Origin: Deltaproteobacteria bacterium
Lineage (GTDB): Bacteria > Desulfobacterota > Desulfobacteria > Desulfobacterales > B30-G6
Length of the DNA stretch: 64,000 nt
Assembly (NCBI GenBank): GCA_022340465.1
Contig: JAJDNW010000006.1
Coordinates: 7,530 to 71,529 of the forward strand
Direction of reading: 5' to 3'
Positions 9,227-48,519 of this stretch are shown piece after piece. Position 1 is the first letter of the stretch; every line of letters starts with the position of its first letter. A program made the position numbers and the translations under genes. A model generated the notes under the pieces. That model did no database searches and had not been told where the DNA came from. It worked only from the letters and a program-made list of their open reading frames with translations.

Positions 9227-10255
9227 TCAACTTGAAGAGCCTCCCTCACCCGAGCCCACATTGATCGGCTTGTTCTCTTCCACACGGTCTACTGGTAAAC
9301 CTGAAAATTCGCTGTCAACGCGAACGATTGGGTTCGGAGCAGTCCGAATGGTCAGTTGAAATGCATCGGGCCTGGCATAATGGCCGGCTACATCCAAATT
9401 CCACTTCGTGCCCCGGATATTGTTTAAATCCACATCGGCATATAAAATTCCTTCCTCTTTGCTCAATGGGCCGGCCAGAATATTTCCTTCAGGATCGGCA
9501 ATCATGCTGTTGCCCGTGTTTATCCAGTCACCGGCTTCTTTGTAGTATGGCTCGAGTTGTGGCATGCGCTCGAGGATATCTCTTTTTTTTAGAACCATAC
9601 AACATCCGACAACATAAACCCGGCCTTCCCTTCCAATGTGGCGAAGCGTGGATTGCCAAGCCTCCCCTTCATCGTATGTTGGTGCCACGTAGAGTTCAAT
9701 ACCCCTACCGTAGAGGCTGTATCGGACTAAAGGCATGTAGTTCTCGTGGCAAATCAGCCCTCCTATTTTGCCAATATTTGTATCATATACATCGAGAGTA
9801 CTTGGATCTCCATATGCCCAAACGGTTCGCTCGGACACCGTAGGTACGAGTTTCTGATGGTAACCTATAATATTTCCATCCGGTCCAATTAGGATATTCG
9901 TATTGAACAAACTTCCTCTGCTCGCACTCTCATTTCGTTCATTAACACCGATGGACAAGTATATCCCTGCCTCTTTCGCGGCCTGGCCCAACCTGTCTGT
10001 TGTCGGGCCCGGTATGGTGACGGCCTGATCTACAAGCTCTCCATAAAGCTGCTGATTTAATACGATCTGGCCGGCTGGAACAAGCCATATCCAGTCAGGG
10101 TAGGTTGGGATGAAAACTTCGGGGAAAACAGCTAACTTGGCACCATTATCACCGATTTCCTTAATCAGAGAACACGCCTTGGCAACGGTTGCATCGCGAT
10201 CCATGAATACTGGAGATGCTTGCACGGCTGCAATCCTAAATGATTTTTTTTCCAT
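9227..10255 (-). CDS. nitrilase / carbon-nitrogen hydrolase family protein
   Basis: 342 aa. Catalytic E (AVFPEVFIP), K (YHQKLVPT) and C (GGLICHENYMPL) in the standard order. The Cys motif reads CHEN rather than the commoner CWEN. Confidence 0.85.
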   Translation of the reverse strand: MEKKSFRIAAVQASPVFMDRDATVAKACSLIKEIGDNGAKLAVFPEVFIPTYPDWIWLVPAGQIVLNQQLYGELVDQAVTIPGPTTDRLGQAAKEAGIYLSIGVNERNESASRGSLFNTNILIGPDGNIIGYHQKLVPTVSERTVWAYGDPSTLDVYDTNIGKIGGLICHENYMPLVRYSLYGRGIELYVAPTYDEGEAWQSTLRHIGREGRVYVVGCCMVLKKRDILERMPQLEPYYKEAGDWINTGNSMIADPEGNILAGPLSKEEGILYADVDLNNIRGTKWNLDVAGHYARPDAFQLTIRTAPNPIVRVDSEFSGLPVDRVEENKPINVGSGEGGSSS

Positions 10256-10621
10256 GTCATTGTCCTTTGAAGATCAGCGCATGACGCACTGTACGGTTGT
10301 ATTTAACGATATTGTATATATCAATCCCGGTTCCATGGGCAACCAACAAATAAAAAGGCCGGCTTGCCTAACGAATGGCAACCCGGCTTTCTATTTAAGA
10401 ACCGTGGCTTTCCGTCCCTGTTTCACAGCAGGTTTGGTTTTTTCATTTCATTCTTATCAATATATATCTTAATTTTTGACACAATGTGGTATTTGTCAAA
10501 TCTAATTTCGACTCTCAAGCAGCTAATAGTGATATGTTTATCATCTTGCGGTGTAGGCAGTTTAGTCATTTGGGCAATTTTATTTTCTAAGCCAATTGCA
10601 GATATGAAAAGTTGGAAAATA

Positions 10622-24105: not shown

Positions 24106-25452
24106 TCAGCCGATGCCGTACTTTTTCATCTTGCGCCACAGGGTGGACTTGTCGATGTCCAGAAATGCGGCGGTTTTTCCGCGGTGCCCCTGGTGGCGTT
24201 TCAAGGCCGCCACGATGGCTTCCTTCTCCGCCTGGTGCAGGCGCAGCGCCGCGGGTGGTGTTTCGCTTTCACCCCGGGCCGCAACTGTTTTCTGCCATTC
24301 GATCTGCCTGATATCGGGGGCGAGATGGTCTGCTTCGATCGTGTCGCCCCGGCACAGCACGAAGGCGTATTCGATGATGTTCTCCAGTTCGCGGATGTTT
24401 CCCGGAAAAGGGTAGCGCATCAGGATTTTCAAGGCTTCGTTCGATATCCCCCTTATGTTTTTGGCTTTAAGCGCATTGAATTTTCGGATGAAGTTGCGGA
24501 CCAGGAGGGGGATGTCCTCCCGGCGGTCTGCAAGGGGAGGGAGCTCGAGCCGGATGACATTGAGACGGTAGAACAGATCTTCCCGGAAGGTTCCCCGCGC
24601 CATGAGTGTCGAGAGGGTCCGGTTGGTCGAGGCGATAATGCGGGCATCGGTCTTTTGGGTGGCGGTGGCCCCCAGCGGTTCGTACTCCTTTTCCTGCAGC
24701 ACCCGCAGCAGTTTTACCTGCAGGGCGGTGGAAATGTCGCCGATTTCATCCAGAAAAAGGGTGCCCCCGGCCGCCCGGGCAAAGCGGCCGGGCTTGTCTT
24801 TTTTTGCTTCGCTGAAAGCACCTTTGCGGTAGCCGAAGAGTTCCGACTCGAGCAGCGTGTCCGGAAGTGCCGCGCAGTTGACGGCCACGAACTCGCCAGC
24901 CTGGCCGCTGACATTGTGAATTGCCCTGGCAAACAGTTCCTTGCCGGACCCGCTGGGCCCCTCGATGAGGATGGTGCTTCCACTGACTGCGATGTCCGGC
25001 AGGATGTCGAAAATCTGCTGCATCTCATAGTTTTTACTGACGATATCCTCGAAACGATATTGGTTGTCTATCTTCTTTCGCAGGGTTTCCACGGTGGTCA
25101 GATCCCTGAAAATTTCAACCCCGCCGATGGTGTGCTCCCTGTCGTCCACGAGCACCGAGGTGCTCACGCTGGCGTCGATGCGTTCCCCCTCGCTGTTCAG
25201 AATATTGACCGATATGTTGATGCCCTGTTTTCCCGATGCCATGGTTTGTCCCAGCGCGCAGGATGTCTGGCATATATTGGCCCGGAATACATCGAAACAC
25301 TTTTTCCCCAGCGCCTGTTTTTTGGACACGCCGGTGATGATTTCCGCGGCGCGGTTGAAATAGGTGATGTTGAAATCGAGATCGATGGTGAACACGCCGT
25401 CGGCAATGGAGTCCAAAATCGTTTCGTAGTGGGCTTTGGTGTCTGTTTTCAT
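24106..25452 (-). CDS. sigma-54-dependent transcriptional activator (PAS-AAA+-Fis HTH)
   Basis: Real start MKTDTKAHYETILDSIADGVFTID (ATG at 25452). PAS, GPSGSGKE Walker A, ESELFGYRKGAFSEA (GAFTGA variant), DEIGD, C-terminal HTH. The 892-aa ORF-track version adds 444 low-complexity residues that cross the intergenic promoter region. Confidence 0.85.
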   Translation of the reverse strand: MKTDTKAHYETILDSIADGVFTIDLDFNITYFNRAAEIITGVSKKQALGKKCFDVFRANICQTSCALGQTMASGKQGINISVNILNSEGERIDASVSTSVLVDDREHTIGGVEIFRDLTTVETLRKKIDNQYRFEDIVSKNYEMQQIFDILPDIAVSGSTILIEGPSGSGKELFARAIHNVSGQAGEFVAVNCAALPDTLLESELFGYRKGAFSEAKKDKPGRFARAAGGTLFLDEIGDISTALQVKLLRVLQEKEYEPLGATATQKTDARIIASTNRTLSTLMARGTFREDLFYRLNVIRLELPPLADRREDIPLLVRNFIRKFNALKAKNIRGISNEALKILMRYPFPGNIRELENIIEYAFVLCRGDTIEADHLAPDIRQIEWQKTVAARGESETPPAALRLHQAEKEAIVAALKRHQGHRGKTAAFLDIDKSTLWRKMKKYGIG

Positions 25453-25545
25453 TCTTATACCTAACTCGAGCGATTTGCGGGTTTGCCGCAGATGCAAGGA
25501 AAAGGTCATTTCGCTGTATTTGAAACGCTCAATGTAAATCACAAT

Positions 25546-25603
25546 ATATTGCAATACTGCAAATAATTGCAACAATAAAATTGCAATAATGCAATTAATT
25601 GCG
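25546..25603. promoter_or_regulatory. array of TGCAA half-sites including two perfect ATTGCAAT palindromes (putative enhancer/UAS)
   Basis: ATTGCAAT at 25548-25555 and 25580-25587 (32 bp apart). More TGCAA at 25558, 25568, 25590. Sits ~100-130 bp upstream of the sigma-54 promoter. A third ATTGCAAT lies at 25732-25739. Confidence 0.55.
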
Positions 25604-25680
25604 CCCGCCTCTGTGCCGTCAATTTTTATATCTAACTGAAATAAAATTAAAAAATAAAATATCGTTGATGTTCCCATTAC

Positions 25681-25696
25681 TGGCACGGAAGATGCT
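25681..25696 (+). promoter_or_regulatory. sigma-54 (-24/-12) promoter
   Basis: TGGCACGGAAGATGCT. GG and GC are exactly 12 nt apart, a good match to TGGCACG-N4-TTGCW. 54 nt before the ATG at 25750. Confidence 0.7.
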
Positions 25697-25749
25697 GTTC
25701 TTAATGGCTGCATGACGGCAATTGGGTATCGATTGCAATGAGGGGCAAC

Positions 25750-26349
25750 ATGAAGCTGGCCATTCCGGTTTTTCATACAAAAATTTCCCCCAGGTTCGAC
25801 GAGACGCAGGGATTTGTTCTTCTGGAGACAGAGGGCGGCAACGTCGTTTCCAGAGAGGAGCTGTCGACGAGGGGATGGTCGGAAATCGAAAAGATAAAGC
25901 AATTGCTGAATCTCGGTGTCGAGACGCTGATTTGTGGCGGCATCGACCGCTCTTCTTTGCAGTATTTGAGTTTCAATGGCGTTCATGTCTTTTCCTGGGT
26001 GACGGGTGAGATCGAAGATGCCGTAACCTGTTTCCTGGACGACCGCATGAAGCCCGGCATCATTTTGGGAGCGCAGGGCAAGATGACGGGGCGGTGGCAG
26101 TTTTGCAAGGGTAGGAATCACGTGTGCAACATGTTTCAGACCGGTTTTTACCATGCTGTTGAGGAGGTGAAGACGATGCCGAAAGGCGATGGAACAGGAC
26201 CGCGCAGCCAGGGACCCCAGTCCGGAAGAGGTCGCGGCGGATGCAAGGGCGGTAAAGGCGGCCGCGGCCAGGGTAGAGGGCAGGGACGCGGGCAGGGCGC
26301 TGACACGGGCCAAGGGCCCAAGTCCGGAGGAGAGAAGGGAAGACGGTAA
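25750..26349 (+). CDS. NifX/NifB-like (MTH1175-like) domain fused in frame to a DUF5320-like Gly/Arg-rich tail
   Basis: N-terminal KLAIPV...ISPRFDETQGFVL...ICGGID resembles dinitrogenase FeMo-cofactor-biosynthesis-like domains. From 26176, MPKGDGTGPRSQGPQSGRGRGGCKGG... matches the MPxGDGTGPxGxGPxTGRG start of DUF5320 proteins. GAGGAGGTG lies 6 nt before that internal ATG. Confidence 0.75.
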   Translation: MKLAIPVFHTKISPRFDETQGFVLLETEGGNVVSREELSTRGWSEIEKIKQLLNLGVETLICGGIDRSSLQYLSFNGVHVFSWVTGEIEDAVTCFLDDRMKPGIILGAQGKMTGRWQFCKGRNHVCNMFQTGFYHAVEEVKTMPKGDGTGPRSQGPQSGRGRGGCKGGKGGRGQGRGQGRGQGADTGQGPKSGGEKGRR

Positions 26350-26560
26350 GCACGTGTTGGAATAAAGCGCCCGCATCGGGCTGGCCGGAGAGATTGGCTC
26401 GCGGCGAGCCGGGATGGTGCGCGAGGAAAAACAGACGAATGCCTGACGGGGGTGTGTAGCGCACCGTGAGGCGGAACATCCCCTGCGGCTTGCCGTAGCA
26501 AAGTGCAGGTCACGACCCTCGGGGCGTGCCTGCCGGAGGGGATCGAAATGGGATGCAGAG

Positions 26561-26941
26561 ATGATGCGAACAATCGTTGCCGGCACGGCGTTGGCTGCCG
26601 CGTCGGCCTTCATAGAAACAATTAAAGCAAACAGCGTCAGGGTGCTGAGCCTGGACACTGCCGGGGAAGCGATTGCAGCGCTGTCAGCAGGGGGGTTCGA
26701 CCTGCTGGTGGCGGCGGAAGATTTGGGGGACATGTCGGGGCTCGAACTGATCGAAGCCGTGGTCAAATCGAGCCCCATGCTCAACTGCGCCGTGGTGAGC
26801 TCGCTTTCGCCCGAAGACTATCATGAGGCCAGCGAGGGGTTGGGGATATTGATGCAGCTGCCCCCCGACCCCGGACCGGAGGAAGCCGTGGCACTGGTCA
26901 ACCATCTGAAAAAGATTCGATCGTTCGGGGTGGGGCCATGA
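26561..26941 (+). CDS. receiver-like (CheY-fold) protein, degenerate
   Basis: 126 aa. DLLVAAEDLGDMSGLELIE resembles the phospho-acceptor region, but the N-terminal acidic pair is absent. Stop overlaps the next start (ATGA). Confidence 0.5.
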   Translation: MMRTIVAGTALAAASAFIETIKANSVRVLSLDTAGEAIAALSAGGFDLLVAAEDLGDMSGLELIEAVVKSSPMLNCAVVSSLSPEDYHEASEGLGILMQLPPDPGPEEAVALVNHLKKIRSFGVGP

Positions 26942-27786
26942 TTATCAGCGTAGCAAGCGGTAAAGGCGGAACCGGCAAAACGACCGTGGCCACCAATCTT
27001 GCGGTTGCCATCGGCGAGGGCGTGCAGCTTATGGATTGCGACGTCGAAGAGCCCAATGCCCACTTGTTCGTTGCGCCGTCCATGGACCGATCGCGAACCG
27101 TTTTTACCATGGTGCCCGAAATCGACGAGCAAAAATGCACTCTGTGCCGCAAGTGTGTGGAGATCTGCCGTTTCAAGGTGATCGCCATTGCCGGCAAAAC
27201 CATCCTGACGTTCCCGGAGCTTTGCCACAGCTGCGGCGGCTGTACGGCCGTGTGCCCCGAGGGGGCCGTTGCCGAGGGCCGACGTGAACTCGGGGAACTG
27301 GAGCAGGGATCGTTCCGGGCCGGGTATTTCGCCCACGGTCGCCTGCGGGTCGGTGAGGCCATGTCGCCCCCGCTGATCAGGGAAGTCAGATCACAGGCCA
27401 GACCGGACATGGTCAATATCATCGATGCCCCTCCCGGGACCTCCTGTCCGGTGATAGCGGCCATGAAGGATACGGATTTTGTGGTCATGGTCACGGAGCC
27501 AACCCCTTTCGGCCTCCACGATTTAAAACTGGCTGTCGAAGCGGTGAAACTGTTGAAGATACCCCACGGCCTGGTGATTAACCGCTCCGATATGGGCAAT
27601 GACATGGTGAGGGCGTATGCGCAGGCGGAAAATCTTCCGATTCTGATGGAGATACCCTTTGATAGAAAGATCGCGGAGGCTTATTCCAGGGGCATCCTGA
27701 TGGTGGATGCTCTGCCGGAGTGGCGGGAAAAGTTTAAAGGGCTGTTTGAGAGCATCACTTTTTATAGTTCTGTTGAGAAGACATGA
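26938..27786 (+). CDS. MinD/ParA-type P-loop ATPase with inserted 2x[4Fe-4S] ferredoxin domain
   Basis: 282 aa. Deviant Walker A SGKGGTGKTT, then CTLCRKCVEICRF and CHSCGGCTAVCP, then IIDAPPGTSCPV. Confidence 0.85.
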   Translation: MIISVASGKGGTGKTTVATNLAVAIGEGVQLMDCDVEEPNAHLFVAPSMDRSRTVFTMVPEIDEQKCTLCRKCVEICRFKVIAIAGKTILTFPELCHSCGGCTAVCPEGAVAEGRRELGELEQGSFRAGYFAHGRLRVGEAMSPPLIREVRSQARPDMVNIIDAPPGTSCPVIAAMKDTDFVVMVTEPTPFGLHDLKLAVEAVKLLKIPHGLVINRSDMGNDMVRAYAQAENLPILMEIPFDRKIAEAYSRGILMVDALPEWREKFKGLFESITFYSSVEKT

Positions 27787-27932
27787 TACCACACATTGAA
27801 AATGTTAACCGGCTTAACTTACTGACGCTGAACGTTGTCAAAACACCTTTCCATTGGATATCCGCATTGATGAATACAAAGAAAGAAAAAATTCTTGCTT
27901 TAACTCCCTTCATCTTCCACCGGCGGCTGTTA

Positions 27933-27948
27933 TGGAAACTTTGTTGCT
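27933..27948 (+). promoter_or_regulatory. candidate internal sigma-54 promoter
   Basis: TGGAAACTTTGTTGCT. GG/GC spacing is correct (12 nt), the -12 TTGCT is perfect, and the -24 keeps only TGG. TATGGAAAC is duplicated 20 nt downstream. Lies in an AT-rich 213-nt spacer, 52 nt before the ATG at 28000. Confidence 0.35.
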
Positions 27949-27999
27949 ATATGGAAACCTCACCGGCTGAGCCGGTGGCTTGTGAAGGGAGTTAAGCGC

Positions 28000-28869
28000 A
28001 TGAAAGAGTTGGTCATTCTAAGCGGCAAGGGTGGAACCGGAAAGACGAGTCTGACGGCAGCTTTTGCCTCGATTGCCGAAAACAGCGTGCTTTGCGATGC
28101 GGATGTGGATGCCGCCGACCTGCACCTCCTGATGAACCCGGTCGTGCGGGAACGCATGGAATTTATGGGGGGCAACCTGGCCGCCATCGACCCCGGCAGA
28201 TGCTCTCAGTGCGGCCAGTGCATCGATCTCTGCCGCTTCGACGCCATTTCCAGCGATTTCGTGGTCGATGAAATCGACTGTGAAGGCTGCGGCGTCTGTG
28301 TCGATTTCTGCCCCGAGCAGGCCATCGATTTTCCAATCAACAAATGCGGCGAGTGGTATATTTCCGAGACCCGCTTCGGTCCCATGGTGCATGCGAGGCT
28401 GGGCATTGCCGAGGAGAATTCCGGAAAGCTCGTGACCCTCGTTCGGCAGGAGGCCGGCAAACTGGCTGAATCCACAAAGCGGGAGTTGATTATTACGGAC
28501 GGCCCCCCGGGTGTGGGTTGCCCGGTAATTGCTTCGGTGGGAGGGGCCACGGCCCTCCTGGTGGTCACGGAGCCGACGGTATCGGGAGTGCATGACATGC
28601 AGCGCCTGCTGGACCTCGCCGCTTATTTCAAGGTTCCCAGCATGGTTTGTGTGAACAAATACGACTTGAATCCGGAGCAGAGTGCGGCCATCAAGGAGCT
28701 GGCGGACGAAAAGGGCATACCGTATGTCGGTAACATCCCCTTCGATCCCCAGTTTGTCGAATCCATGGTTGCGGGCAAAACGGTTCTGGAGCATCGACCG
28801 GATGGTGAATTGGGCGCTATTGTCAAGCAAGTTTGGGCGAGTGTCCAGGGAGAAATGAACATTAACTGA
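28000..28869 (+). CDS. MinD/ParA-type P-loop ATPase with inserted 2x[4Fe-4S] ferredoxin domain (paralog)
   Basis: SGKGGTGKTS Walker A, CSQCGQCIDLCRF and CEGCGVCVDFCP, ITDGPPGVGCPV. ATG at 28000; the ORF-track GTG at 27982 is less likely. Confidence 0.85.
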   Translation: MKELVILSGKGGTGKTSLTAAFASIAENSVLCDADVDAADLHLLMNPVVRERMEFMGGNLAAIDPGRCSQCGQCIDLCRFDAISSDFVVDEIDCEGCGVCVDFCPEQAIDFPINKCGEWYISETRFGPMVHARLGIAEENSGKLVTLVRQEAGKLAESTKRELIITDGPPGVGCPVIASVGGATALLVVTEPTVSGVHDMQRLLDLAAYFKVPSMVCVNKYDLNPEQSAAIKELADEKGIPYVGNIPFDPQFVESMVAGKTVLEHRPDGELGAIVKQVWASVQGEMNIN

Positions 28870-28886
28870 CAGGGAGAATTGGATCT

Positions 28887-29279
28887 ATGCAAAACGGAAG
28901 GATAGCAGTCCCCTCGAACGGGGCAGGCGGCTTGGACGGTATGCGGGCAGGACACTTCGGACATTGTGATGTCTTTACCTGCATCGACGTCGAGGACGGT
29001 GAGATAAAGAATGTTTCCATTATTCAGAACGAGGAGCATGTTCAGGGCGGTTGCATGGTGCCGGTGAATCTTCTGGCAGGCCACAAGGTCAATGCCCTGA
29101 TTGTGGGGGGCATCGGCATGCGGCCGCTGATGGGTTTCAAACAGGTGGGCATCGACGTGTACCACGATGCCGTAAGACCGGAGATACGGCCGGTGGTGGA
29201 AGATCTGATCGCCGGCAATCTGCCGGAGATTCGCAGCGATCAGGTGTGCGGCGGCGGTGGCGGTCGTATGGCGTCTTAA
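28887..29279 (+). CDS. NifX/NifB-like (MTH1175-like) domain protein
   Basis: 130 aa. RIAVPSNG...HFGHCDVFT...LIVGGIGMRP pattern of the dinitrogenase FeMo-cofactor biosynthesis domain family. Confidence 0.8.
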   Translation: MQNGRIAVPSNGAGGLDGMRAGHFGHCDVFTCIDVEDGEIKNVSIIQNEEHVQGGCMVPVNLLAGHKVNALIVGGIGMRPLMGFKQVGIDVYHDAVRPEIRPVVEDLIAGNLPEIRSDQVCGGGGGRMAS

Positions 29280-29300
29280 TATGGAAGAGGGGAGCAGGAA

Positions 29301-29660
29301 ATGAAAATTGCCGTTACATCTCAGGGAACGGATTTAGATGCACAGGTTGACCCCAGGTTCGGCCGCGCCAAGTATATTCTGATTATCGACATGGACGATG
29401 GCAATCTGGAAGTTCTGGACAACGCCGAAAATGTGAACGCCTTCAAGGGGGCGGGCATTCAGGCGGCAGCTAGCGTGGGCGACAGGGGGGCTGACGTGTT
29501 GCTGACAGGTTACTGCGGTCCCAACGCGTTCAAGACCCTGGCCGCGGCCGGGGTCAAAGTGGCCAATGACGCTTCCGGAACGGTCAGGGAGGCGGTGGCG
29601 GCTTTCGAGGAGGGCCGGTTGACCATCGCCGACGGGGCCAATGTGGATGGCCATTGGTAA
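29301..29660 (+). CDS. NifX/NifB-like (MTH1175-like) domain protein
   Basis: 119 aa. KIAVTSQG...VDPRFGRAKYILIID...LLTGYCGPNAFKTL, the canonical form of this family. Confidence 0.8.
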   Translation: MKIAVTSQGTDLDAQVDPRFGRAKYILIIDMDDGNLEVLDNAENVNAFKGAGIQAAASVGDRGADVLLTGYCGPNAFKTLAAAGVKVANDASGTVREAVAAFEEGRLTIADGANVDGHW

Positions 29661-29859
29661 CAGACGGGCAGTAATGTCCCATAGGGGGAGTAGATGAGCT
29701 CATAGCTGCCAGGTCATCGTTCATGGCACGCTATCAGCTATGCGTTATGCGCTTTTTCCTCCTCGCCCCTGGGCCCCCATGCCTTCGGCTTTAGCGGAAG
29801 GTGATTGACTTTGATTATAAAACGTTATGAACCTCAACCTTGAGGTGAACCGTTTTCGA

Positions 29860-30073: not shown

Positions 30074-30505
30074 ATGATGAACGACAGGGATTTTGATTTC
30101 TTTCGGGACCATTCGAGAAACTATCTCGAGATGGCCCTCACCAGGGATCGGCAGGAATCGATGGCCAACCCTGACGGCTACGGTCGACGAACCGGCGTCT
30201 GCGGGGACACCGTGGAAATATTCTTAAAGGTCGGGCAAGGCCGTGTGGAGAGCGTTTCCTACCAGTTGGACGGGTGCATCAACACGAATGCCTGCTGCAA
30301 CACCGTCGCCGTGATGGCCGAAGGGAAGAGCATCGACAGCGCCTGGGGCATTACGCCGGAAAAAGTGATCGATTTTCTGGGGACACTCCCGCCGGAGAAT
30401 GCCCACTGCGCCGAACTGGCTGTAGGGGCGTTGTACCTCGCGCTTGCCAACTGCAGGGAACTCGGCCGCCATCCCTGGAAAAAGGCATACAGCGTTCACC
30501 GGTGA
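30074..30505 (+). CDS. IscU/NifU-N-like Fe-S cluster scaffold protein
   Basis: GVCGDTVEIFL...VSYQLDGCINTNAC...NAHCAELAV: three-Cys scaffold pattern (C-G-D, internal C, H-C). ATG at 30074 after GCAGGGAGGG. Confidence 0.75.
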   Translation: MMNDRDFDFFRDHSRNYLEMALTRDRQESMANPDGYGRRTGVCGDTVEIFLKVGQGRVESVSYQLDGCINTNACCNTVAVMAEGKSIDSAWGITPEKVIDFLGTLPPENAHCAELAVGALYLALANCRELGRHPWKKAYSVHR

Positions 30506-30560: not shown

Positions 30561-30914
30561 ATGGCGAATTTTTTGTTTGTGCTGAGTAAGGATGACAACC
30601 AAAAGGCGACGCGTTGTTTTCAGTTCGCCAAAATTGCCGCCGAGAAGGGGCATGACGTAAATTTGTTTTTCGTAGACGGCGGGGTTATGTGGGCCGACTC
30701 CACCAGGGATTTCAACACAGCGACCACCACCGGGGACTGCCCCAATGATTACCTGCCGTATATTGTGGAGAATGAAATCCCCATCGGCGTCTGAATCCCC
30801 TGTGCCAAGGCTCGTCAGGTTGACGAGAGCAATTTTTTCAGCAACATGGCACTGGATGGCGCCCCCCGTCTCATCGACCTTGCTGCGGAAGCAAGGGTGT
30901 TCAACTTTGACTGA
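30561..30914 (+). CDS. DsrE/DsrF-like protein, predicted selenoprotein (TGA 30792-30794 read as Sec)
   Basis: ATG after GGAGGGG. The DsrE-like fold sequence stops at ...ENEIPIGV-TGA, but the same frame stays open for 39 more codons (IPCAKARQVDESNFF...AEARVFNFD) to TGA at 30912, completing the family C-terminus and giving a U-I-P-C motif. Hairpin CTCGTCA-GGT-TGACGAG at 30811-30827. Confidence 0.7.
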
Positions 30915-30926
30915 TAAGGAGAGATC

Positions 30927-32282
30927 ATGAAAAAAGGAGAAAAGCTTGTCATCGTAGGGTGCAGTGGCTCAGGGGGGCCGGCTGCCATGCGCGCGCGCCA
31001 ATTGATGCCCGATATCGACATAACGGTCATCCGCAAGGAAAAGTGTTTCATCGTCAGGTGAGCGCTTCCGCATGTGGTGGCCGGTCTGGCTGCCGGGGAA
31101 TCGGTGATTATGCCCGACAAAATGCTTGAAAACGCCGGAATCAACGTTGTCAGAGACGAGGTGGACCAGGTGGATCCCAAGAGTCGACGCGTGATGACGA
31201 CCGGTGGTAAAACGTTTGCATATGACAAATTGTACCTGGCCATGGGGGCCAGCCCCTTTATTCCGCCCATCGAGGGAAAGGACCTGAAGGGGGTCGTGGC
31301 ATTGCGCGGCCTATCCGATGCTGAAAACATCAGAGCATACATGGCCGAAGAAAAACCCAGAAATATTATTTTCATCGGTGCGGGCTTTATCAGCATGGAA
31401 ATTGCCTCGCTGATAGCGCAACACATGCCCTATAACTACAACATCAAGGTGATCGAACTCATGGACCGGCCGCTTCCACTGATGCTGGATAAAGAGATGG
31501 CGGAACTGGTCCAGTCCTATCTTGAGAAAAAGGGGATCGGTGTCCTGACCGGGAAGAAGGTGGAAAAACTGACCGGGCAGAATGGGAAAATCGCTGCCGT
31601 GGAACTGGCTTCCGGTGAAAAATTCGCTGCGGACCTGGTGTTTATGAACGTGGGCGTACGGCCCAACGGTAAGCTCGCCATGGACATGGGCCTTGAAATG
31701 GGCCAGTTCGGCATCAAGGTGAACGCCTATCAGGAAACGTCGGACCCCCACATCCTGGCAGGAGGCGACTGCGTCGAAAAGATCAATTTCATTACCCAGA
31801 AGCCAACGCCGGGGCAGCTTCGCGGGCCGGCGGTGCTCCAGGGACGCCTGGCAGCCAAACGGCTGGCCGGGTTCGACATTCCCTTTCCGGGCGTCGTGGA
31901 CGCGGGCGGCTGCAAAATGTTCGATCTCACCATTACGGCCACCGGCCTTACCGAAGAACGCGCCGCCCAGGAGGGCATCGAAACCATTTGCTCCGTGGTC
32001 GATTCCCGCAGCAAGCACAACATGATACCGGGCACGCAACCATGGAAGATCAAATTGGTGTTCAACAAGCACAACCAGGAGCTGATCGGTGGACAGATCG
32101 TCAGCCGCGATGTGGGACCGGCAAGGGAAATCGATGCCGTTACCGCCTTTATCCTGGGCAGGAAGACCATTGCGGACCTGACCACGTTTACGTCCGCCTG
32201 CAATCCGGACATCTCGTCGGAACCGAGTGCCGAACCGATTACCATTGCGGCGGAACAAGCCCTGGGAAGACTGAGACCGTAA
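30927..32282 (+). CDS. CoA-disulfide reductase / NADH oxidase family flavoprotein, predicted selenoprotein (TGA 31059-31061 read as Sec)
   Basis: ATG at 30927 gives MKKGEKLVIVGCSGSGGPAAMRARQL...KCFIVR-TGA-ALPHVVAG in the same frame as the 402-aa ORF at 31074. The TGA aligns with the redox Cys of the SFANC(A/G)LPY motif. The GxGxxG FAD fold lies only upstream of the TGA. Hairpin GGTGGCC-GGTCT-GGCTGCC at 31076-31094. Confidence 0.75.
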
Positions 32283-32326
32283 CCTCGCCATATCTCAGAT
32301 CGGACCCCTGGCTTATTTAATGACGT

Positions 32327-32361
32327 ATCTCTACCCTGGTCCTTTGGGCCAGGGTAGAGAT
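32327..32361 (+). terminator. strong hairpin after the selenoprotein operon
   Basis: Perfect 13-bp stem ATCTCTACCCTGG-N9-CCAGGGTAGAGAT, 45 nt after the stop at 32282. No U-tract, so factor-independent termination is not certain. Confidence 0.5.
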
Positions 32362-32707
32362 AGTTGGCTGTGACGGTAATAGGGGTAATAAAATTCCAAA
32401 CACCAAATCCGAAATCTCATATTTGGGTTAACGTGTTTCTTGGGTTTATTGGGCTCATTGGGTTAGCGGTTTAACGACCCCAACCGTTCGTTTTTTTTAA
32501 CCGCAGACAATCGCGGACACAAAAAAACTCAACGAACACAACAAACGCAATGAACAACACGCTTACAGGGTGAAACCTGTGCCGAGCCCTGCGAGCGGGG
32601 GTATCTACGTGAACCTTATGGTTGCATAAACAGTCTGGCAAGCGTATATTGTAATTCACCCTTGGGCTGAGCGTTTCAAATAATAGGAATCGATTAAGGA
32701 GGCCGGC

Positions 32708-33730
32708 GTGTATGCATTGAATTTCGACCCCGCCATCTGTGAATCGTGCGACACCTGCGACTGCCTGATGAAGTGCCAGTACATGCACTTTGACCTTGCG
32801 GAGGCCAGGCAGGAGAAGGCCAACATCAACAACGGCGGGCCATCGCGGGTGTTGACCGAATGCGCCACTTGCTATGCCTGTGAAGAGTACTGCCCCAACG
32901 ACAACCATCCTTTTTACCTGATCGTCGAGCGCCAGGAAGCGTTGGGCATCCTGCCTTCGCCTGCGCCCATCACCCGCCAGCAGATTCTGATGATGAAGCC
33001 CAGGGGAACCATTATTCCGGAGAAGGTCAGCCCCCCGGTGATCGACATGTGCTATTTCCCCCCGCTGACCGCAGGCATAAAGGAACCGCTTTATGAAAAT
33101 CCATCCGTCATCGTGGGGAGTGATATCTTCTGCAACATCATGTGGCTGCATTTTGCCCGCAACTCCGTTATCAGAGAGCGGCTTCCCAGGGTCATAGACA
33201 ATATATGGCAGTATTATTTGCGGGACAGCGGTGTCGAGGAGCTGATCTGCTTTCACGACGAATGCTATGCAACCTTCAGCCACCTGGCGCCGGCATTTAA
33301 TATCGATGTGCCTTTTCGGCCTGTGCATGTGTTCGAGTATATAGCCGGCAGGCTGGAAACGCTGAAAGACAGGATTACGCCGCTCAATGCAAAGGTGGCC
33401 TACCAGCGCCCCTGCTCGAACCGGCTGATACCGGAAACGCAGCACTGGGTGGATGACATTTTTGAAAAAATAGGGGCTGAAAGGGTGGCGCGCAGGTACG
33501 ACCGGGAAAATGCGCTGTGCTGCGGTCAGGTTCTGAGGGCCCATCAAAGGGATGACACGGCCGACGACCTGCAGGCCCGCAACCTGGGCGATATGAAGGC
33601 GACGGGGGCGGCTTACTGCGTCTTCAACTGCCCCGCCTGCATGATGACCCTCGCGGAACCCGCCGCTGAACAGGGGTTGTTTCCCATTCACCTGAGTGAC
33701 CTCTGCCAACACGCACTGACGTCGTCATGA
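32708..33730 (+). CDS. HdrD-like Fe-S/CCG-domain oxidoreductase subunit
   Basis: 340 aa. CESCDTCDCLMKC and CATCYACEEYCP cluster motifs, followed by cysteine-rich CCG-type regions (NALCCG, FNCPACMMT). GTG start 6 nt after AAGGAGG. Confidence 0.75.
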   Translation: MYALNFDPAICESCDTCDCLMKCQYMHFDLAEARQEKANINNGGPSRVLTECATCYACEEYCPNDNHPFYLIVERQEALGILPSPAPITRQQILMMKPRGTIIPEKVSPPVIDMCYFPPLTAGIKEPLYENPSVIVGSDIFCNIMWLHFARNSVIRERLPRVIDNIWQYYLRDSGVEELICFHDECYATFSHLAPAFNIDVPFRPVHVFEYIAGRLETLKDRITPLNAKVAYQRPCSNRLIPETQHWVDDIFEKIGAERVARRYDRENALCCGQVLRAHQRDDTADDLQARNLGDMKATGAAYCVFNCPACMMTLAEPAAEQGLFPIHLSDLCQHALTSS

Positions 33731-33756
33731 CCGGGACGCAACAGGAGGGGAGGCCT

Positions 33757-35135
33757 ATGACCGAAATGTACGCTAGACTCGTGGAGATCGTCGGCTCGGG
33801 ATTCGTGTCCGATGCTCCGGAGGAAAAGTATATCTATGCCATGGATCCCGGAACCATGCCGGCCTGCGAACCGGACATGGTGGTCATGCCGGGGAGTACG
33901 GCCGAGGTCCGGAAGATCGTGCTGGCCGCCAATGAATTCCATGTGCCTCTGATTCCGCTGGGAGCGGGACTGGTGCTTTCAGGATTGTCCCGGGCCTTGA
34001 AAGGCGGCGTCATCGTGGACATGAAAAGGATGAACCGCATTCTGGAAGTCAATGCCGTGAGCCGTTATGCACTGGTGGAAGCAGGAACATCCCAGGGGAT
34101 GCTCAAGGCCCACCTGCAAAAGCACTATCCGGGCCTCAAGCATTCGATGCCGGATGCCCCTCCGGCTGCGACCATCGCAGGGAATATATGCATACACGGG
34201 TCCGGTCACCTCTCGCACGTGGGTGGATTTCATTCCGAGATGCTCAACGGTTTGGAAGTGGTGCTGCCCACCGGTGAAATTGTCAACATCGGTTCCTGCG
34301 CCACCTCCCCGTACTGGTTTGCCAGGGCCCCGCTGCCGGACCTGGCAGGGCTTTTTCTGGGATGGGCCGGAACGACGGGCATCATAACCAAGCTGTCCAT
34401 AAAGCTGTATCCCAACCATCCCATCAACGATGTGGGCGTGTTCGTCTGCGAGGATGCCGATCTTATGCCGGATATTTTGAACCGATTGACGGGTGCGCAG
34501 CTCGCGGAGGACATCACCACCTGGATGACGCCCAAACCGGACTGGGCCGAGGGCTTCCTGCATTGTAATGTCAATTACGGCGCCGGGTCCAAGGAGGAGC
34601 TCGTCTGGAAACGCAACTTGATTCGATCGGCGGTGGCCGGCTATATCGATGACAAGACCGGGGGCTTTCTGCCGCTGCCGGCGATGATGAAGAAGAGATT
34701 CCTGGAGGTTCCCGCCACGCAGCTTTCCCGGTTTGCGGACGTCCGCAAAGGCGGGGGGTTCGAATATGTGGGCGCCATCATGCCGGTGGAATTTTTCCCC
34801 GATGCCTATGCCTTAGGCCTGGAAGTCGCCCGCCAAACGGGCGTGAGCTACTCCATGGGCTGCCGTGTGGTCGGCGTCAATCACTGCATGATGTTTTTCT
34901 ATGCCTATGCCTTCAACCGGGCGGACGCCGCCGATGTGGCCAGGGCCCAGGAAGCGCTGGGGGAAACCAACAAGCGGGTCGTGGCGATGGGCGGTATTCC
35001 CTGGAAAGCCGAGGAACCCGCCCAGAAGGAGATTCTCAGCAAGATGGATCCCAACATGTTCGCCATGATGAACCGGGTGCGGGAGACACTGGATCCCAAC
35101 GGTATCATGAATCCCGGGAACTGGGAGGCTGGCGT

Positions 35136-35139
<4 letters not shown>
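33757..35139 (+). CDS. FAD-binding oxidoreductase (GlcD / D-lactate dehydrogenase-like, FAD_binding_4)
   Basis: VVMPGSTAEVRKIV...PLIPLGAGLVLSG FAD-binding PCMH pattern; C-terminal LDPNGIMNPG. ATG at 33757 after AGGAGGGG. Confidence 0.8.
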
Positions 35140-36308
<1,169 letters not shown>

Positions 36309-39537: not shown

Positions 39538-40995
39538 ATGATAAGATCAAGCAGCGGTGGGATAGACACTGTCCGGTTTTTAAAGGACAGTGACATGCAG
39601 AAGATTCATGAGCAGGCGCTATACCTGTTGGAGAATACCGGCATCGGCATCGAGCACCAGGTAGGCATGGAGATGCTCGAAAATACCGGCGCTGTTGTGG
39701 ATTACGACAAGAAAACAGCCCGCTTTTCAGCGTCGCTGGTGGAAAAGTGCCTGGCATCCGTACCCCGTAAAATCACCCTGGCCGGCAGAAATCCGGAGCG
39801 AGACCTGATCCTGGAACCAGGCGGCACCATTCGGACCCGCAATACCGGCGGGATGACCCAGATACACGACCTTGAAACCGGGGAAATCAGAGAATCCGTT
39901 CTTTCTGACACGGCCGACTTTGCCAGGCTCTTGGACGGACTGGACAACATCGATTTCATTGCGCCTCTATATGCGGCCGACGTGCCCCTTGAAATCCTGG
40001 AGCTCCAGGTGCTGGAAACCATGATGTGCAATACGGACAAGCATATCAACATCCGGGCTCTAGACAAAAGGACCTTTCCCTATCTTATCAAGATGGGCGA
40101 GATCGTGGCCGGCGGTAAGGAAGCTTTGAAAAAGCGACCGGTCATCAGCATTCTCGAAGCACCCATTTCCCCGCTGGTATTCCCCGATGTTTTTGTTGAT
40201 TCGCTCCTTTTAGGCGGGGAGGCCGGAATACCAATCGAAATCTGTTCTATGCCCAACGTGGGCGGAACCGGACCGATTACCCTGGCGGGATCGCTGCTGC
40301 TATCGACGGTCGAACACCTGGCGACCATTGTCATTTCACAGACGGGTTGTCCGGGGGCGCCCCTAGTCTGGGCATCGCGCTTCCCGGCCCTGGACATGAA
40401 GACCGGCAACACTGGCATGCTCACGGAGGGTGCCCTGGTGTCGGCGGCGGCCGCCCAGTTGGCATCGGAACACTACAACCTAATCTGCGACCTGCACGGC
40501 CCGGCCACCAATGCTGTCAACCCGGAAGGCGAGTCCGTCTTCGAAGAGTGCATCGGTGCGTTCGTGACGGGCTTTGCTGGGCGCCCGGCCGTTCTGTGCG
40601 GTGCAGGCGGGATGGAGCTGGGCATTGCCACCAGCTTCGAGCAGCTGGTCATCTCCAATGAGATTTATGCGGTGTTCCGCAGAGTACTGGAAGGATTTGT
40701 TGTCAATGACGATACGCTGGGCATGGATGCCATCGCTCAGGCGGGGATCGGTGGCAATTACCTGGGAGAACAGCACACCCTCGACCACCTGCGCAGCGAA
40801 CGGTTGAATTCCGACCTGCTGAAACCGAAAACAAGGGCCAAGTGGCTCGAAGAGGGCTCTAAAAGCCTGGTTGACCTGGCCCGTGAAAAAGCACGCGCCA
40901 TCCTGGCGGAGCACAAACCGGCGCGCCTGGACGACGCCACCCTGGCAAGCCTCAAAGCACTTGTCAAGAAGGCACAAAATGAATTCACCGGCTAA
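39538..40995 (+). CDS. MttB-superfamily (trimethylamine methyltransferase-like) protein, non-pyrrolysine
   Basis: 485 aa, uninterrupted (no in-frame TAG). LSDxxxxKIHEQAL.LLE.TG., [23 protein letters not shown] blocks are typical of PF06253-type proteins as I remember them. Confidence 0.8.
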   Translation: MIRSSSGGIDTVRFLKDSDMQKIHEQALYLLENTGIGIEHQVGMEMLENTGAVVDYDKKTARFSASLVEKCLASVPRKITLAGRNPERDLILEPGGTIRTRNTGGMTQIHDLETGEIRESVLSDTADFARLLDGLDNIDFIAPLYAADVPLEILELQVLETMMCNTDKHINIRALDKRTFPYLIKMGEIVAGGKEALKKRPVISILEAPISPLVFPDVFVDSLLLGGEAGIPIEICSMPNVGGTGPITLAGSLLLSTVEHLATIVISQTGCPGAPLVWASRFPALDMKTGNTGMLTEGALVSAAAAQLASEHYNLICDLHGPATNAVNPEGESVFEECIGAFVTGFAGRPAVLCGAGGMELGIATSFEQLVISNEIYAVFRRVLEGFVVNDDTLGMDAIAQAGIGGNYLGEQHTLDHLRSERLNSDLLKPKTRAKWLEEGSKSLVDLAREKARAILAEHKPARLDDATLASLKALVKKAQNEFTG

Positions 40996-47058: not shown

Positions 47059-48519
47059 ATGTTAAAGACACGCAATGGCGGCATCAAAAGTGTTCGGTTT
47101 TTAACGAATGCGGACTTTTTGAAAATTCATGAACAATCCCTTTGCCTGCTGCAGGAAAAAGGGGTCGGGATTACACATGAATCTGCGCTAAAAAACCTGG
47201 CGGACTGCGGTGCAAATGTCAATTTTCAGACCAAGAACGTCACCATCAGTGCTGGCCTTGTTGAACAGGCTCTCAAGACAGTACCCCGTGAAATAACCAT
47301 GGCTGCAAGAAGTCAGGAGCGGGATATCGTCCTGGAACCCGGCGGAAAAATGTATACCAGGAATTCGGGGGGCATGACCCAGATCGTGGATATTGAATCC
47401 GGAGAGATAAGAGATGCGGTGCTTTCCGATACAGAAGATTTTACAAGGCTTGCAGATGCGTTAGAGCATATCAATGTGGTGGCCCCTCTATACCCTAGTG
47501 ATATGCCGCTGGAAATTTTAGAGCTGTATACGCTGAAAGCCATGTTCAAGCACACGGACAAGCATATAAGCGTGCGGGCACTGAATCCGGGGACCTTTCC
47601 TTTCATTGTAGAGATGGCCGGAGCTGTTGCCGGTGGTAGTGAGAAATTAAGAAAGCGGCCGATTATCAGTATACTGGACTCCCCCATATCCCCATTGTCT
47701 TTTCCCGATATTTTCGTAGACGCCTTGTACACAGGCGGTGAATACGGGATCCCGGTGGAAGCATGCTCCACACCGAATATCGGGGCCACCGGCCCCATAA
47801 CTCTGGCCGGCTCCCTGCTGCTGGCCAATGTCGAACAATTGGCCACCATCGTTATCTCACAGTTGGCCCACCCTGGTGCACCCCTTATATGGGCACCGAG
47901 GTTCCCCGCAATGGATATGTCCACCGGCATTACGGGCATGCTGACGGAGGGTGCCTTGATTTCAGCCGCGGCGGCACAAATGGCGGAGGAGTTCTATCGG
48001 CTGATCTGTGACTTTCATGGTCCGGCAACCAATGCCATCGTCGCTGGCTCGGAATCTGTTTTCCAGGAGTGCATCGCTGCATTCGTGACATCTTTTGCAG
48101 GCAGGCCGGCCTTATTGTGCGGGGCCGGGGCCTTGGAACTGGGGATCATTGCCAGTTTTGAAGATTTGGTTATCGCTGACGAACTTTTTGCTGTCTTGAA
48201 AAGGTCCATTGATGGCATCATCATCAATGAGGATACACTTGGGGCCGATGCAATAGCGGACGTCGGCATCGGGGGACATTATCTAGGCCACGAACACACG
48301 CTGAAACACCTCAGGGACAATCGTCTGAATTCATTCTTGTTGAAACCCAAAACCAGGGAACAGTGGGTTGAACAGGGCTCTCCATCGCTCGTCAAGAGGG
48401 CCGGTGATAAGGCGCGGGAGATATTGAAACATTACCAACCTGGAAAATTGGATGAGAGAACAGAAAAGGAACTTAACAACATCATCCATGCAGCCCACAA
48501 GGAATTATCCGATAATTAA
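47059..48519 (+). CDS. MttB-superfamily protein, non-pyrrolysine (paralog of 39538-40995)
   Basis: 486 aa, collinear with the first copy. Long shared blocks ([62 protein letters not shown]). Confidence 0.8.

Follow-up and report, generated by a model that had tools for sequence, protein, structure and literature searches.

Flavoproteins of the family that includes coenzyme A (CoA)-disulfide reductase (CoADR), Npsr and the NADH oxidases and peroxidases (Nox and Npx) work by a common mechanism, in which reduced nicotinamide adenine dinucleotide or its phosphate (NAD(P)H) reduces flavin adenine dinucleotide (FAD), the flavin reduces the oxidised catalytic chalcogen, and the chalcogen attacks the substrate (PMC7969121, PMC9405070). 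In Npsr and the CoA-persulfide reductase CoAPR, sulfane sulfur is picked up by the cysteine of a rhodanese domain and carried over to the catalytic cysteine by a swing of the bound CoA (PMC7969121, PMC9405070); AfNpsr, the A. fulgidus enzyme, uses NADH exclusively (PMC7969121). Here we describe a gene of this family in which the codon at the catalytic position is TGA. It occupies positions 30927-32282 on the forward strand of a 64,000-nucleotide stretch (hereafter the window) of contig JAJDNW010000006.1, from the Deltaproteobacteria bacterium assembly GCA_022340465.1 (Desulfobacterales), and very probably encodes a selenocysteine (Sec)-containing member of the CoADR/Npsr/Nox family.

Selenoproteins of this kind have been listed before. 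The 'NADH oxidase' selenoprotein family reportedly stems from the prokaryotic selenoproteome survey of Kryukov & Gladyshev in 2004. A 2006 survey gives it among the families of Geobacter metallireducens (PMC1794560), it is also present in the delta-1 symbiont of Olavius (PMC1976440), and a 2026 review gives its motif as U-G-x-P and describes the family as 'predicted with high confidence' (PMC9312934, PMC13188914); the listed representative is the G. metallireducens protein WP_011365774.1. DsrE-like proteins with a U-x-x-C motif are also a listed family (PMC9312934, PMC13188914). As Sec flavoproteins of the 'NADH oxidase/CoADR-like' type and DsrE-like selenoproteins have been on published lists since 2004, the discovery reported here is a modest one. 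To our knowledge, no member of the Sec flavoprotein family has been studied biochemically, and a flavin paired with a single selenol would offer a clean system for comparing selenium with sulfur in the persulfide, peroxide and disulfide chemistry of strict anaerobes.

Starting from its ATG, the gene reads as one frame of 451 codons with the N-terminus MKKGEKLVIVGCSGSGGPAAMRARQL, interrupted once, by the TGA of codon 45, its sole in-frame TGA, and closed by TAA at 32280-32282. Ahead of the TGA the frame reads MKKGEKLVIVGCSGSGGPAAMRARQLMPDIDITVIRKEKCFIVR and after it ALPHVVAGLAAGES, from where it stays open as far as the TAA; the predicted peptide across codon 45 is CFIVR-U-ALPHVVAGLAAGESVIMPDK. 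A Shine-Dalgarno-like AAGGAGAG precedes the start codon (30927-30929), and the start column of 69 orthologous sequences holds ATG 61 times, GTG seven times and TTG once. The first-pass annotation of this DNA had likewise opened the frame at ATG 30927, run it into the TGA at 31059-31061 and continued in frame, with the FAD-binding N-terminus lying before the TGA; checked against the window, all of these coordinates are right, and the motif G11-C-S-G-S-G16 falls within codons 1-44. The mechanical list of open reading frames (ORFs) holds only a 402-residue segment, which begins at GTG 31074 within the hairpin described below.

A species-level scan, with one genome per species, returned 73 orthologous loci of 59-79% identity from Desulfobacterota or unclassified metagenome-assembled genomes (MAGs). 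Seventy of these include the TGA region and were testable, with some comparisons using 69 sequences or loci. Codon 45 is TGA in 70 of the 70, each in a different species-level genome, as well as in the window, and tblastn alignments span residues 1-450 through the stop codon in more than 60 genomes. The 44 codons before the TGA share 78% mean amino-acid identity with the orthologues while their third positions are 41% identical and entropy at their four-fold sites averages 1.70 bits, which indicates purifying selection on the N-terminal protein. In phmmer alignments to solved relatives, the TGA column is that of the catalytic cysteine of RCGLPY in A. fulgidus Npsr (6pfz), ACGLPY in T. thermophilus (6ruz), GCGIPY in D. 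vulgaris (3iwa) and NCGLPY in B. anthracis CoADR-RHD (3icr). An exhaustive HMMER search, for which the query was the cysteine orthologue P0002, gave cysteine in this column in all 143 full-length proteins among the best 150 representatives (50%-identity clusters). The earlier claim that the TGA falls exactly on the catalytic cysteine is thus borne out, a check for misalignment having come out negative. P0002 itself (locus L080) is a full-length orthologue of 71% identity that reads R-C-A-L-P-Y with the codon TGC, and for each Cys form the genomes sampled contain approximately 70 Sec forms.

An error of sequencing or assembly, or a recent inactivating mutation, would leave the gene a pseudogene or conceal a true TGC or TGT codon. 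TGA is one base away from TGC, the orthologue in L080 does carry TGC, and outside the window this exact sequence is on record in just one place, a 1.4-kb metagenome contig of the Joint Genome Institute (JGI). However, TGA recurs at this codon in 70 genomes and MAGs that are independent of one another and come from different studies, both halves of the gene are under purifying selection and an RNA element is conserved downstream. A pseudogene would have none of these features, and we regard an error or lesion as practically impossible; the sequencing error that the first-pass annotation had considered does not account for TGA in every testable locus.

Translation might instead stop at the TGA, so that the gene yields a peptide of 44 residues and, from a start of its own at GTG 31074, a protein of 402. 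ORF lists and public gene calls do return 44-residue and ~402-residue ORFs: the N-terminus is called as a separate 44-residue gene in L081, L082 and L083 and is dropped by gene callers elsewhere, and 119 of the best 120 protein clusters are 383-410 residues long, covering 84-90% of the query, which places the cut made by the gene calls directly after the TGA. As a biological arrangement this is exceedingly improbable. Without read-through, as the first-pass annotation pointed out, the 402-residue product loses both the catalytic residue and the strand-helix with the FAD-binding GxGxxG, which are found in 143 of 143 full-length representatives; GTG 31074 lies within the conserved hairpin and has no Shine-Dalgarno sequence, and the truncated products of relatives (383-410 residues) start at different residues, so no internal start is conserved. 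TGA ends 19 of the 29 Pfam-supported genes in the window, where it is the commonest ordinary stop, and it is not reassigned in this genome. A scan of the window for other pairs of ORFs joined by one TGA left only those at 30792 and 31059 looking real. Taken together, the evidence from conservation, selection, gene calls, the cysteine orthologue and stop usage makes the error, pseudogene and two-polypeptide readings untenable, and essentially every public gene call in the flavoprotein clade would be wrong, lacking the FAD motif and the catalytic residue.

A hairpin of the Sec insertion sequence (SECIS) type follows the TGA. It consists of GGTGGCC (31076-31082), the loop GGTCT (31083-31087) and GGCTGCC (31088-31094), and the seven base pairs, two of them G-U, are confirmed in the window as previously described; the hairpin starts 14 nt 3' of the UGA and its first loop base is 22 nt past the A of the TGA. 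The outermost pair of the stem is not conserved, leaving a conserved core of 5-6 bp (31077/31078-31082 with 31088-31092/31093). In an alignment of 70 sequences the apex GCC-GGUCU-GGC is invariant or nearly so, and its two closing C-G pairs are invariant. Stem pair 20-34 occurs as UA in 35 sequences, UG in 27 and CG in 8, and pair 21-33 as GC in 41, AU in 20 and GU in 9, with neither pair broken in any of the 70. Covariation in the alignment scores 0.329; shuffles score 0.240 ± 0.014, with none of 500 reaching 0.329, and slid controls stay at or below 0.128. Four-fold sites in 69 sequences carry 1.70 bits in codons 2-42 and 1.68 bits in codons 57-124, which is saturated; those of codons 51-54 (GTG GCC GGT CTG) carry 0.64, 0.00, 0.32 and 0.00 bits (mean 0.24), and these low-entropy codons coincide with the top of the stem and the loop. 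Judged against relatives, the conservation of the TGA column, the N-terminal peptide and the hairpin apex in 70 other species-level genomes goes overwhelmingly beyond chance.

In bacteria a GGUCU-type loop is the SelB-binding apex, as established for fdhF. The likeness to the fdhF SECIS loop that had been drawn for this hairpin is exact for the pentamer, since GGUCU is identical in the E. coli fdhF sequence. There, too, the hairpin lies inside the coding region just downstream of the UGA, and the distance from UGA to apex is 18 nt in fdhF and 21 nt in the window gene. The two elements differ in stem sequence and length, and the window hairpin is without the bulged-U lower helix of the fdhF type. 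The cysteine orthologue still has the hairpin GTGGCCGGTCTGGCTGC (8133-8192 in L080) despite its TGC, and this looks like a fossil SECIS left by a recent Sec-to-Cys conversion.

Read-through of the UGA without Sec-tRNA(Sec), whether by a near-cognate cysteine or tryptophan tRNA or by Cys-tRNA(Sec) under selenium limitation, would suit a protein whose cysteine form is evidently viable (P0002). We consider it very unlikely given the conserved GGUCU at a distance from the UGA close to that of the fdhF element, which is known to recruit SelB, the second Sec gene with its own GGU-loop hairpin 12 nt upstream, the other standard Sec genes near relatives of the flavoprotein, such as a peroxiredoxin reading FTFV-U-ATE, and the role of TGA as the main ordinary stop codon in the window. 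Several observations pull away from Sec decoding. By the window sequence itself the hairpin does not stand out beyond chance, as single-sequence folding of the region is no better than that of shuffles (z = +0.31), and at Rfam gathering thresholds the hairpin matches no SECIS family. Within the 64 kb there is no tRNA gene, no SelD-type GCGCK/GUGCK motif and, in three Pfam scans of flanking genes, no selA, selB, selC or selD; that selenium is incorporated into the flavoprotein is something we infer from sequence comparison. A TGA on the cysteine column, its conservation, the hairpin apex, the covariation and the use of TGA elsewhere as a stop together mark 31059-31061 as a predicted site of site-specific Sec recoding.

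The flavoprotein represents a distinct and widespread clade that, as its codon 45 is read here, is almost always Sec-containing. The clade is isolated, with 42% identity to the nearest full-length representative outside its cluster, and it has the motif R-U-A-L-P-H with an invariant arginine before the Sec. Cultivated carriers of the gene are Desulfofustis glycolicus DSM 9705, Desulfoprunum benzoelyticum DSM 28570, Desulfatitalea alkaliphila and Desulfothermus okinawensis. A second Sec clade was found in Syntrophales MAGs L074-L079 (e.g., L074:3710, L075:6127), whose proteins are ~30% identical to the flavoprotein, have TGA on the catalytic cysteine column (T-A-A-U-P-M-P-Y-Y) and retain the AYAPP tyrosine; a hairpin, UAUUACAUC-GGU/GGC-GAUGUAAU, lies 13 nt after their TGA. 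With this further clade counted, the catalytic position of these flavoproteins appears to have gained or kept Sec on several occasions.

At the protein level, Pfam places Pyr_redox_2 at residues 6-288 (5.5e-53), Pyr_redox at 147-228 and Pyr_redox_dim at 329-430; no rhodanese domain is matched and the protein ends at residue 451. Residue 45 lies where the group carries its one redox-active cysteine next to the flavin, at about residues 42-45, and with no second cysteine within five residues there is no CxxxxC disulfide. Relatives in the PDB score between 1e-62 and 1e-44 (phmmer) at about 23-31% identity. The nearest by sequence and fold are AfNpsr, SlNpsr, BaCoADR-RHD, EfCoAPR and PhCoADR, followed by NADH oxidases and NADH peroxidase, with T. 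thermophilus CoADR/Nox also among the best solved relatives. An AlphaFold2 model reached a predicted local distance difference test score (pLDDT) of 32 from the single sequence and 67.6 with 51 aligned sequences; the latter, of moderate quality, gave Foldseek template modelling (TM) scores of ~0.6 to CoADR-RHD, Npsr, CoADR, Nox and Npx.

The best matches, with E-values from 1.4e-62 to 7e-53 and Foldseek ranks 1-17, are the Npsr of A. fulgidus (6pfz) and Shewanella loihica (3nta) and the CoAPR/CoADR-RHD of E. faecalis (8a56) and B. anthracis (3icr). In these proteins, too, one redox-active residue lies against the flavin; R-U-A-L-P-H is similar to the R-C-G-L-P-Y context of AfNpsr, and an acidic residue for NADH is conserved in the window flavoprotein. 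However, they have 540-590 residues and a C-terminal rhodanese domain, neither of which the 451-residue window protein shares, and the latter has Sec for Cys and Cys for Tyr419' at ~27-31% identity. The CoADRs of S. aureus (1yqz) and Pyrococcus (4fx9) agree with it in architecture, having no extra domain, in length (~440-450 residues) and in the position of the redox residue, but differ in their S-F-x-N-C motif, against F-I-V-R-U here, and in the Tyr419' position, which is Cys here. The NADH peroxidase and oxidases (E. faecalis 1npx, L. brevis 5er0, S. pyogenes 2bc0) share the fold and the redox-residue position at lower similarity (E = 1e-45 to 1e-33); their redox cysteine cycles via sulfenic acid, of which a selenenic acid would be the direct analogue. 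By the alignment, the position of Npx His10 would be glycine in the window flavoprotein.

Two sets of results count against a closer assignment. The scores fall below the cut-offs of the NCBIfam CoADR equivalogs (TIGR03385 / NF007123), at 257.8 against 578.8, 236.6 against 458 and 128.6 against 394 bits, and of the H2O-forming Nox model NF046103, at 168.1 bits against 600. The AlphaFold model is unreliable at residues 40-62, which include the active site, and at 422-436, the Cys425 loop, so no distance argument is made. Lying below every curated equivalog cut-off, the protein may work as the group does but is not to be filed under a named enzyme. The first-pass description as a CoADR/NADH oxidase-like flavoprotein therefore holds for the family, by domains and structures, and does not extend to CoADR proper.

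The clade-specific invariant cysteines are C12, C329 and C425. The column of Cys425 is tyrosine in 91 of the 150 representatives and cysteine only in the clade of the flavoprotein, and presumably corresponds to Tyr419' of S. aureus CoADR (1yqz; query 6-430 aligned to residues 3-424), which with Tyr361' is an active-site tyrosine contributed by the partner subunit and for which Y361F and Y419F mutant structures exist according to PDB entry titles. A cysteine at this active-site tyrosine position may also set the window clade apart from the listed 'NADH oxidase' selenoprotein family. The two are alike in superfamily (COG0446/TIGR03385-like), in having Sec for the flavin-proximal catalytic cysteine, in occurring in Deltaproteobacteria/Desulfobacterota and in being predicted from sequence (PMC1794560, PMC1976440, PMC9312934, PMC13188914). 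The motif is U-G-x-P in the listed family (PMC13188914) and U-A-L-P-H here, as compared by motif description, and no Geobacter locus was among the 79 loci found with patterns from the window clade. The window gene adds a member, and no more than a clade, to a kind of selenoprotein that is already known.

We propose that the UGA of codon 45 would be decoded as Sec with the aid of the GGUCU-loop hairpin, giving a 451-residue, homodimer-type FAD flavoprotein of about 49 kDa. By analogy with the family, NADH would reduce the FAD; the second Rossmann strand ends in an invariant glutamate, Glu177, which suggests NADH rather than NADPH as the donor. FADH2 would in turn reduce the oxidised selenium centre at Sec45, which would sit against the flavin, and the resulting selenolate would attack the substrate. 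Oxidised Sec45 might take one of three forms: a selenenic acid, on the model of Nox/Npx; a mixed selenenylsulfide to CoA or some other thiol, on the model of CoADR/Npsr; or a selenenylsulfide that joins it to Cys425 across the dimer. The last is conceivable with Cys425 in the active-site tyrosine column and is weakened by the replacement of C425 by Ser or Val in two of 67 orthologues and its shift by two residues in six; an inter-subunit Sec45-Cys425' bond would thus be a minority possibility.

The features of the locus are collected in Table 1.

Table 1. Positions in the window of the flavoprotein gene, its predicted recoding elements and adjoining features
Feature	Position	Strand	Basis
Shine-Dalgarno-like AAGGAGAG	30916..30923	+	sequence reading; start column in 69 orthologues
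Predicted selenoprotein coding sequence, 451 residues, TAA stop	30927..32282	+	translation, Pfam, PDB relatives, tblastn
N-terminal 44 codons with FAD-binding beta-alpha-beta motif G11-C-S-G-S-G16	30927..31058	+	orthologue comparison
UGA codon 45, predicted selenocysteine at the catalytic-cysteine position	31059..31061	+	orthologues, structures, representatives
SECIS-type hairpin, GGUCU loop 31083-31087	31076..31094	+	synonymous-site entropy, covariation
DsrE-like selenoprotein gene (predicted), 117 residues, upstream neighbour	30561..30914	+	PF02635, E = 9.7e-19
NifU/IscU-like scaffold gene	30074..30505	+	PF01592 NifU_N, 1.7e-15
Hairpin 43 nt after the flavoprotein stop, perfect 17-bp stem 32326-32362	32322..32365	+	fold energy

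In the DsrE-like gene the TGA at 30792-30794 is the first position of the U-x-x-C motif, G-V-U-I-P-C, where Cys homologues read GVCTPC or GVCIPC, and TGA is found at this codon in 76 of 80 metagenome loci of the DsrE clade. The hairpin CTCGTCA-GGT-TGACGAG lies at 30811-30827, and the gene ends in TGA-TAA. The two Sec genes had been described as back to back and 13 nt apart; both in-frame TGAs are present, but the spacer to ATG 30927 is 12 nt. The nifU-like, dsrE-like (Sec) and flavoprotein genes probably form a three-gene unit with the nifU-like gene first, and the hairpin after the flavoprotein is its probable 3' end. This hairpin folds at -39.1 kcal/mol (z = -3.67; none of 200 shuffles folds as well) and has no U-tract, so it may be a terminator or an RNA-stability element.

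Upstream, an orp-like cluster (24106-29660) comprises CbiA/4Fe-4S P-loop ATPases (26938-27786 and 27982-28869), Nitro_FeMo-Co proteins (28887-29279 and 29301-29660) and a divergent, 892-residue PAS/sigma-54 activator (24106-26784, reverse strand), and resembles the redox-regulated orp operons of Desulfovibrio vulgaris that are controlled by OrpR (PMC8359166). The sigma-54 promoter consensus gives no signal in the window (63 matches against 75 expected), and TGGCACGCTATCAGC at 29724-29738, upstream of nifU, is a guess at a sigma-54 site. The order NifU-DsrE(TGA) also occurs in L092, L115, L148, L149, L151, L152 and L161, and the metagenome contig L152 repeats NifU-DsrE(TGA)-flavoprotein(TGA), the only recurrence of this layout. 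Window-like orp/NifU/DsrE clusters may be without the flavoprotein, as in L148, and at L087:5001-7436 the locus also has an orp-like set with NifU and DsrC upstream.

Across orthologues the neighbourhood of the flavoprotein is variable. No DsrE gene turned up by tblastn, nor in a second run at E <= 0.01, in any of the 79 loci retrieved for the flavoprotein, all 69 orthologues tested among them. A minority of loci share recurring neighbours: about 18 have a sigma-54 activator, about 6 an SxxC thioredoxin, 6 a Sec-peroxiredoxin reading FTFV-U-ATE and 3-5 orp-like genes. A hard-wired operon partner was considered and rejected, no partner occurring in more than about a quarter of the orthologue loci, as was a conserved Sec-Sec pair, given that DsrE stands beside none of the 69 even at E = 0.01.

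Sec-peroxiredoxin genes (TGA) lie directly downstream of the flavoprotein at L009:7414-8130, L012:7687-8403, L016:7381-8097 and L028:8110-, just upstream at L067:4387-5106, and ~5 kb away on the opposite strand at L068:11050-11304(-), which hints at a peroxide-stress context in those six relatives. Thioredoxin-fold genes adjoin upstream at L012:5234-5572, L017:5521-5859, L019:1523-1837, L021:5349-5654, L028:5344-5721 and L081:7207-7569, with the monothiol SxxC motif W-S-S-P-C (R-S-A-P-C in L021) instead of W-C-G-P-C; these SxxC thioredoxins could be protein partners of the flavoprotein.

Seen from DsrE, 58 loci had sufficient flanking sequence; in seven of them a gene of the CoADR/Npsr family lies within 3 kb, and in five of the seven within 370 nt. 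The DsrE-like genes concerned are mostly of the U-x-x-C type, and the flavoproteins linked to them belong to four subfamilies: rhodanese-fused proteins in L087/L140 and in L138/L157, proteins reading SYSACGMPY in L131 and L143, and the window clade in L152. The density is ~17 family genes per Mb of flank, which we judge to be roughly ten-fold the typical genomic density, that background being a rough estimate and not computed. A functional link between DsrE-like carriers and the CoADR/Npsr-type flavoprotein family is plausible, and it is neither obligatory nor specifically Sec-Sec. The functional Sec-Sec couple suggested in the first-pass annotation was an extrapolation and fares poorly: proximity at the family level speaks for a link, but the absence of DsrE beside all tested orthologues speaks against this form of it.

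With DsrE genes beside four flavoprotein subfamilies, a family link is plausible and a sulfane-sulfur role is favoured here. We would tentatively assign to the flavoprotein, short of an even chance, a role in reducing sulfane sulfur, as persulfide or polysulfide, that the neighbouring DsrE-like U-x-x-C protein would hand over in the manner of the Npsr rhodanese. The best solved relative, 6pfz, is an NADH-specific persulfide/polysulfide reductase (PMC7969121). The Sec-peroxiredoxin and thioredoxin neighbours speak against this role, as they point to peroxide or thiol stress and not to sulfur. They suit a detoxifier of O2 or peroxide of the NADH oxidase/peroxidase type that cycles via Sec-SeOH and has no tie to the DsrE-like protein, for which we see an appreciable but lesser chance. 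Homology to NADH peroxidase and the water-forming NADH oxidases is clear, six relatives have a Sec-peroxiredoxin gene within 5 kb, which in four of them is directly downstream, a thioredoxin-like gene adjoins the flavoprotein in about six, DsrE neighbours none of the 69 loci tested, and the window-like cluster of L148 ends without a flavoprotein. We nevertheless place it behind the sulfane-sulfur role, as the solved proteins nearest in sequence and fold reduce persulfides, polysulfides or CoA-persulfide, the score against the NCBIfam H2O-forming Nox model is 168 against a cut-off of 600, and DsrE-family genes recur beside other members of the flavoprotein family. What probability these two roles leave falls to another disulfide or protein partner. 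The recurring neighbourhoods suggest candidate partners among DsrE-like sulfur carriers, the Sec-peroxiredoxin and the SxxC thioredoxin.

A bolder and distinctly improbable reading takes the R-U-A-L-P-H clade as rhodanese-less per(sulfide/selenide) reductases with a Sec45-Cys425' centre and a DsrE-like donor in trans. If true, the clade would differ from every characterised family member in both its oxidised state and its sulfur or selenium donor: the Sec45-Cys425' selenenylsulfide would replace the Cys-S-S-CoA or Cys-SOH centre, and, in this organism, the DsrE-like UxxC protein would take the part of the Npsr rhodanese domain. It and the flavoprotein would together supply the NifU-like scaffold and the orp-type metallocluster genes under sigma-54 control, or carry out detoxification on their behalf.

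Elsewhere in the window, past the hairpin that follows the flavoprotein, a separate cluster at 32708-36308, which is of the glycolate/lactate-oxidase-like GlcD/GlcF type, encodes three proteins, one with a CCG domain, one with FAD_binding_4/FAD-oxidase_C and one with Fer4/CCG. No in-frame TGA was seen in this cluster, although GlpC-like Fe-S oxidoreductases are a listed selenoprotein family. Two MttB-family methyltransferase genes, at 39538-40995 (485 residues, Pfam MTTB) and 47059-48519 (486 residues, with a similar N-terminus), are embedded among FGGY kinase, major facilitator superfamily (MFS) transporter and FAD-oxidase genes; both are without an in-frame TAG and so are of the non-pyrrolysine type. 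The sole Rfam match in the window is a c-di-GMP-I-GGC riboswitch aptamer (RF03167, 64.4 bits against a gathering threshold of 59) at 10373-10447 on the reverse strand, which sits upstream of a carbon-nitrogen hydrolase gene at 9227-10255 on the same strand.

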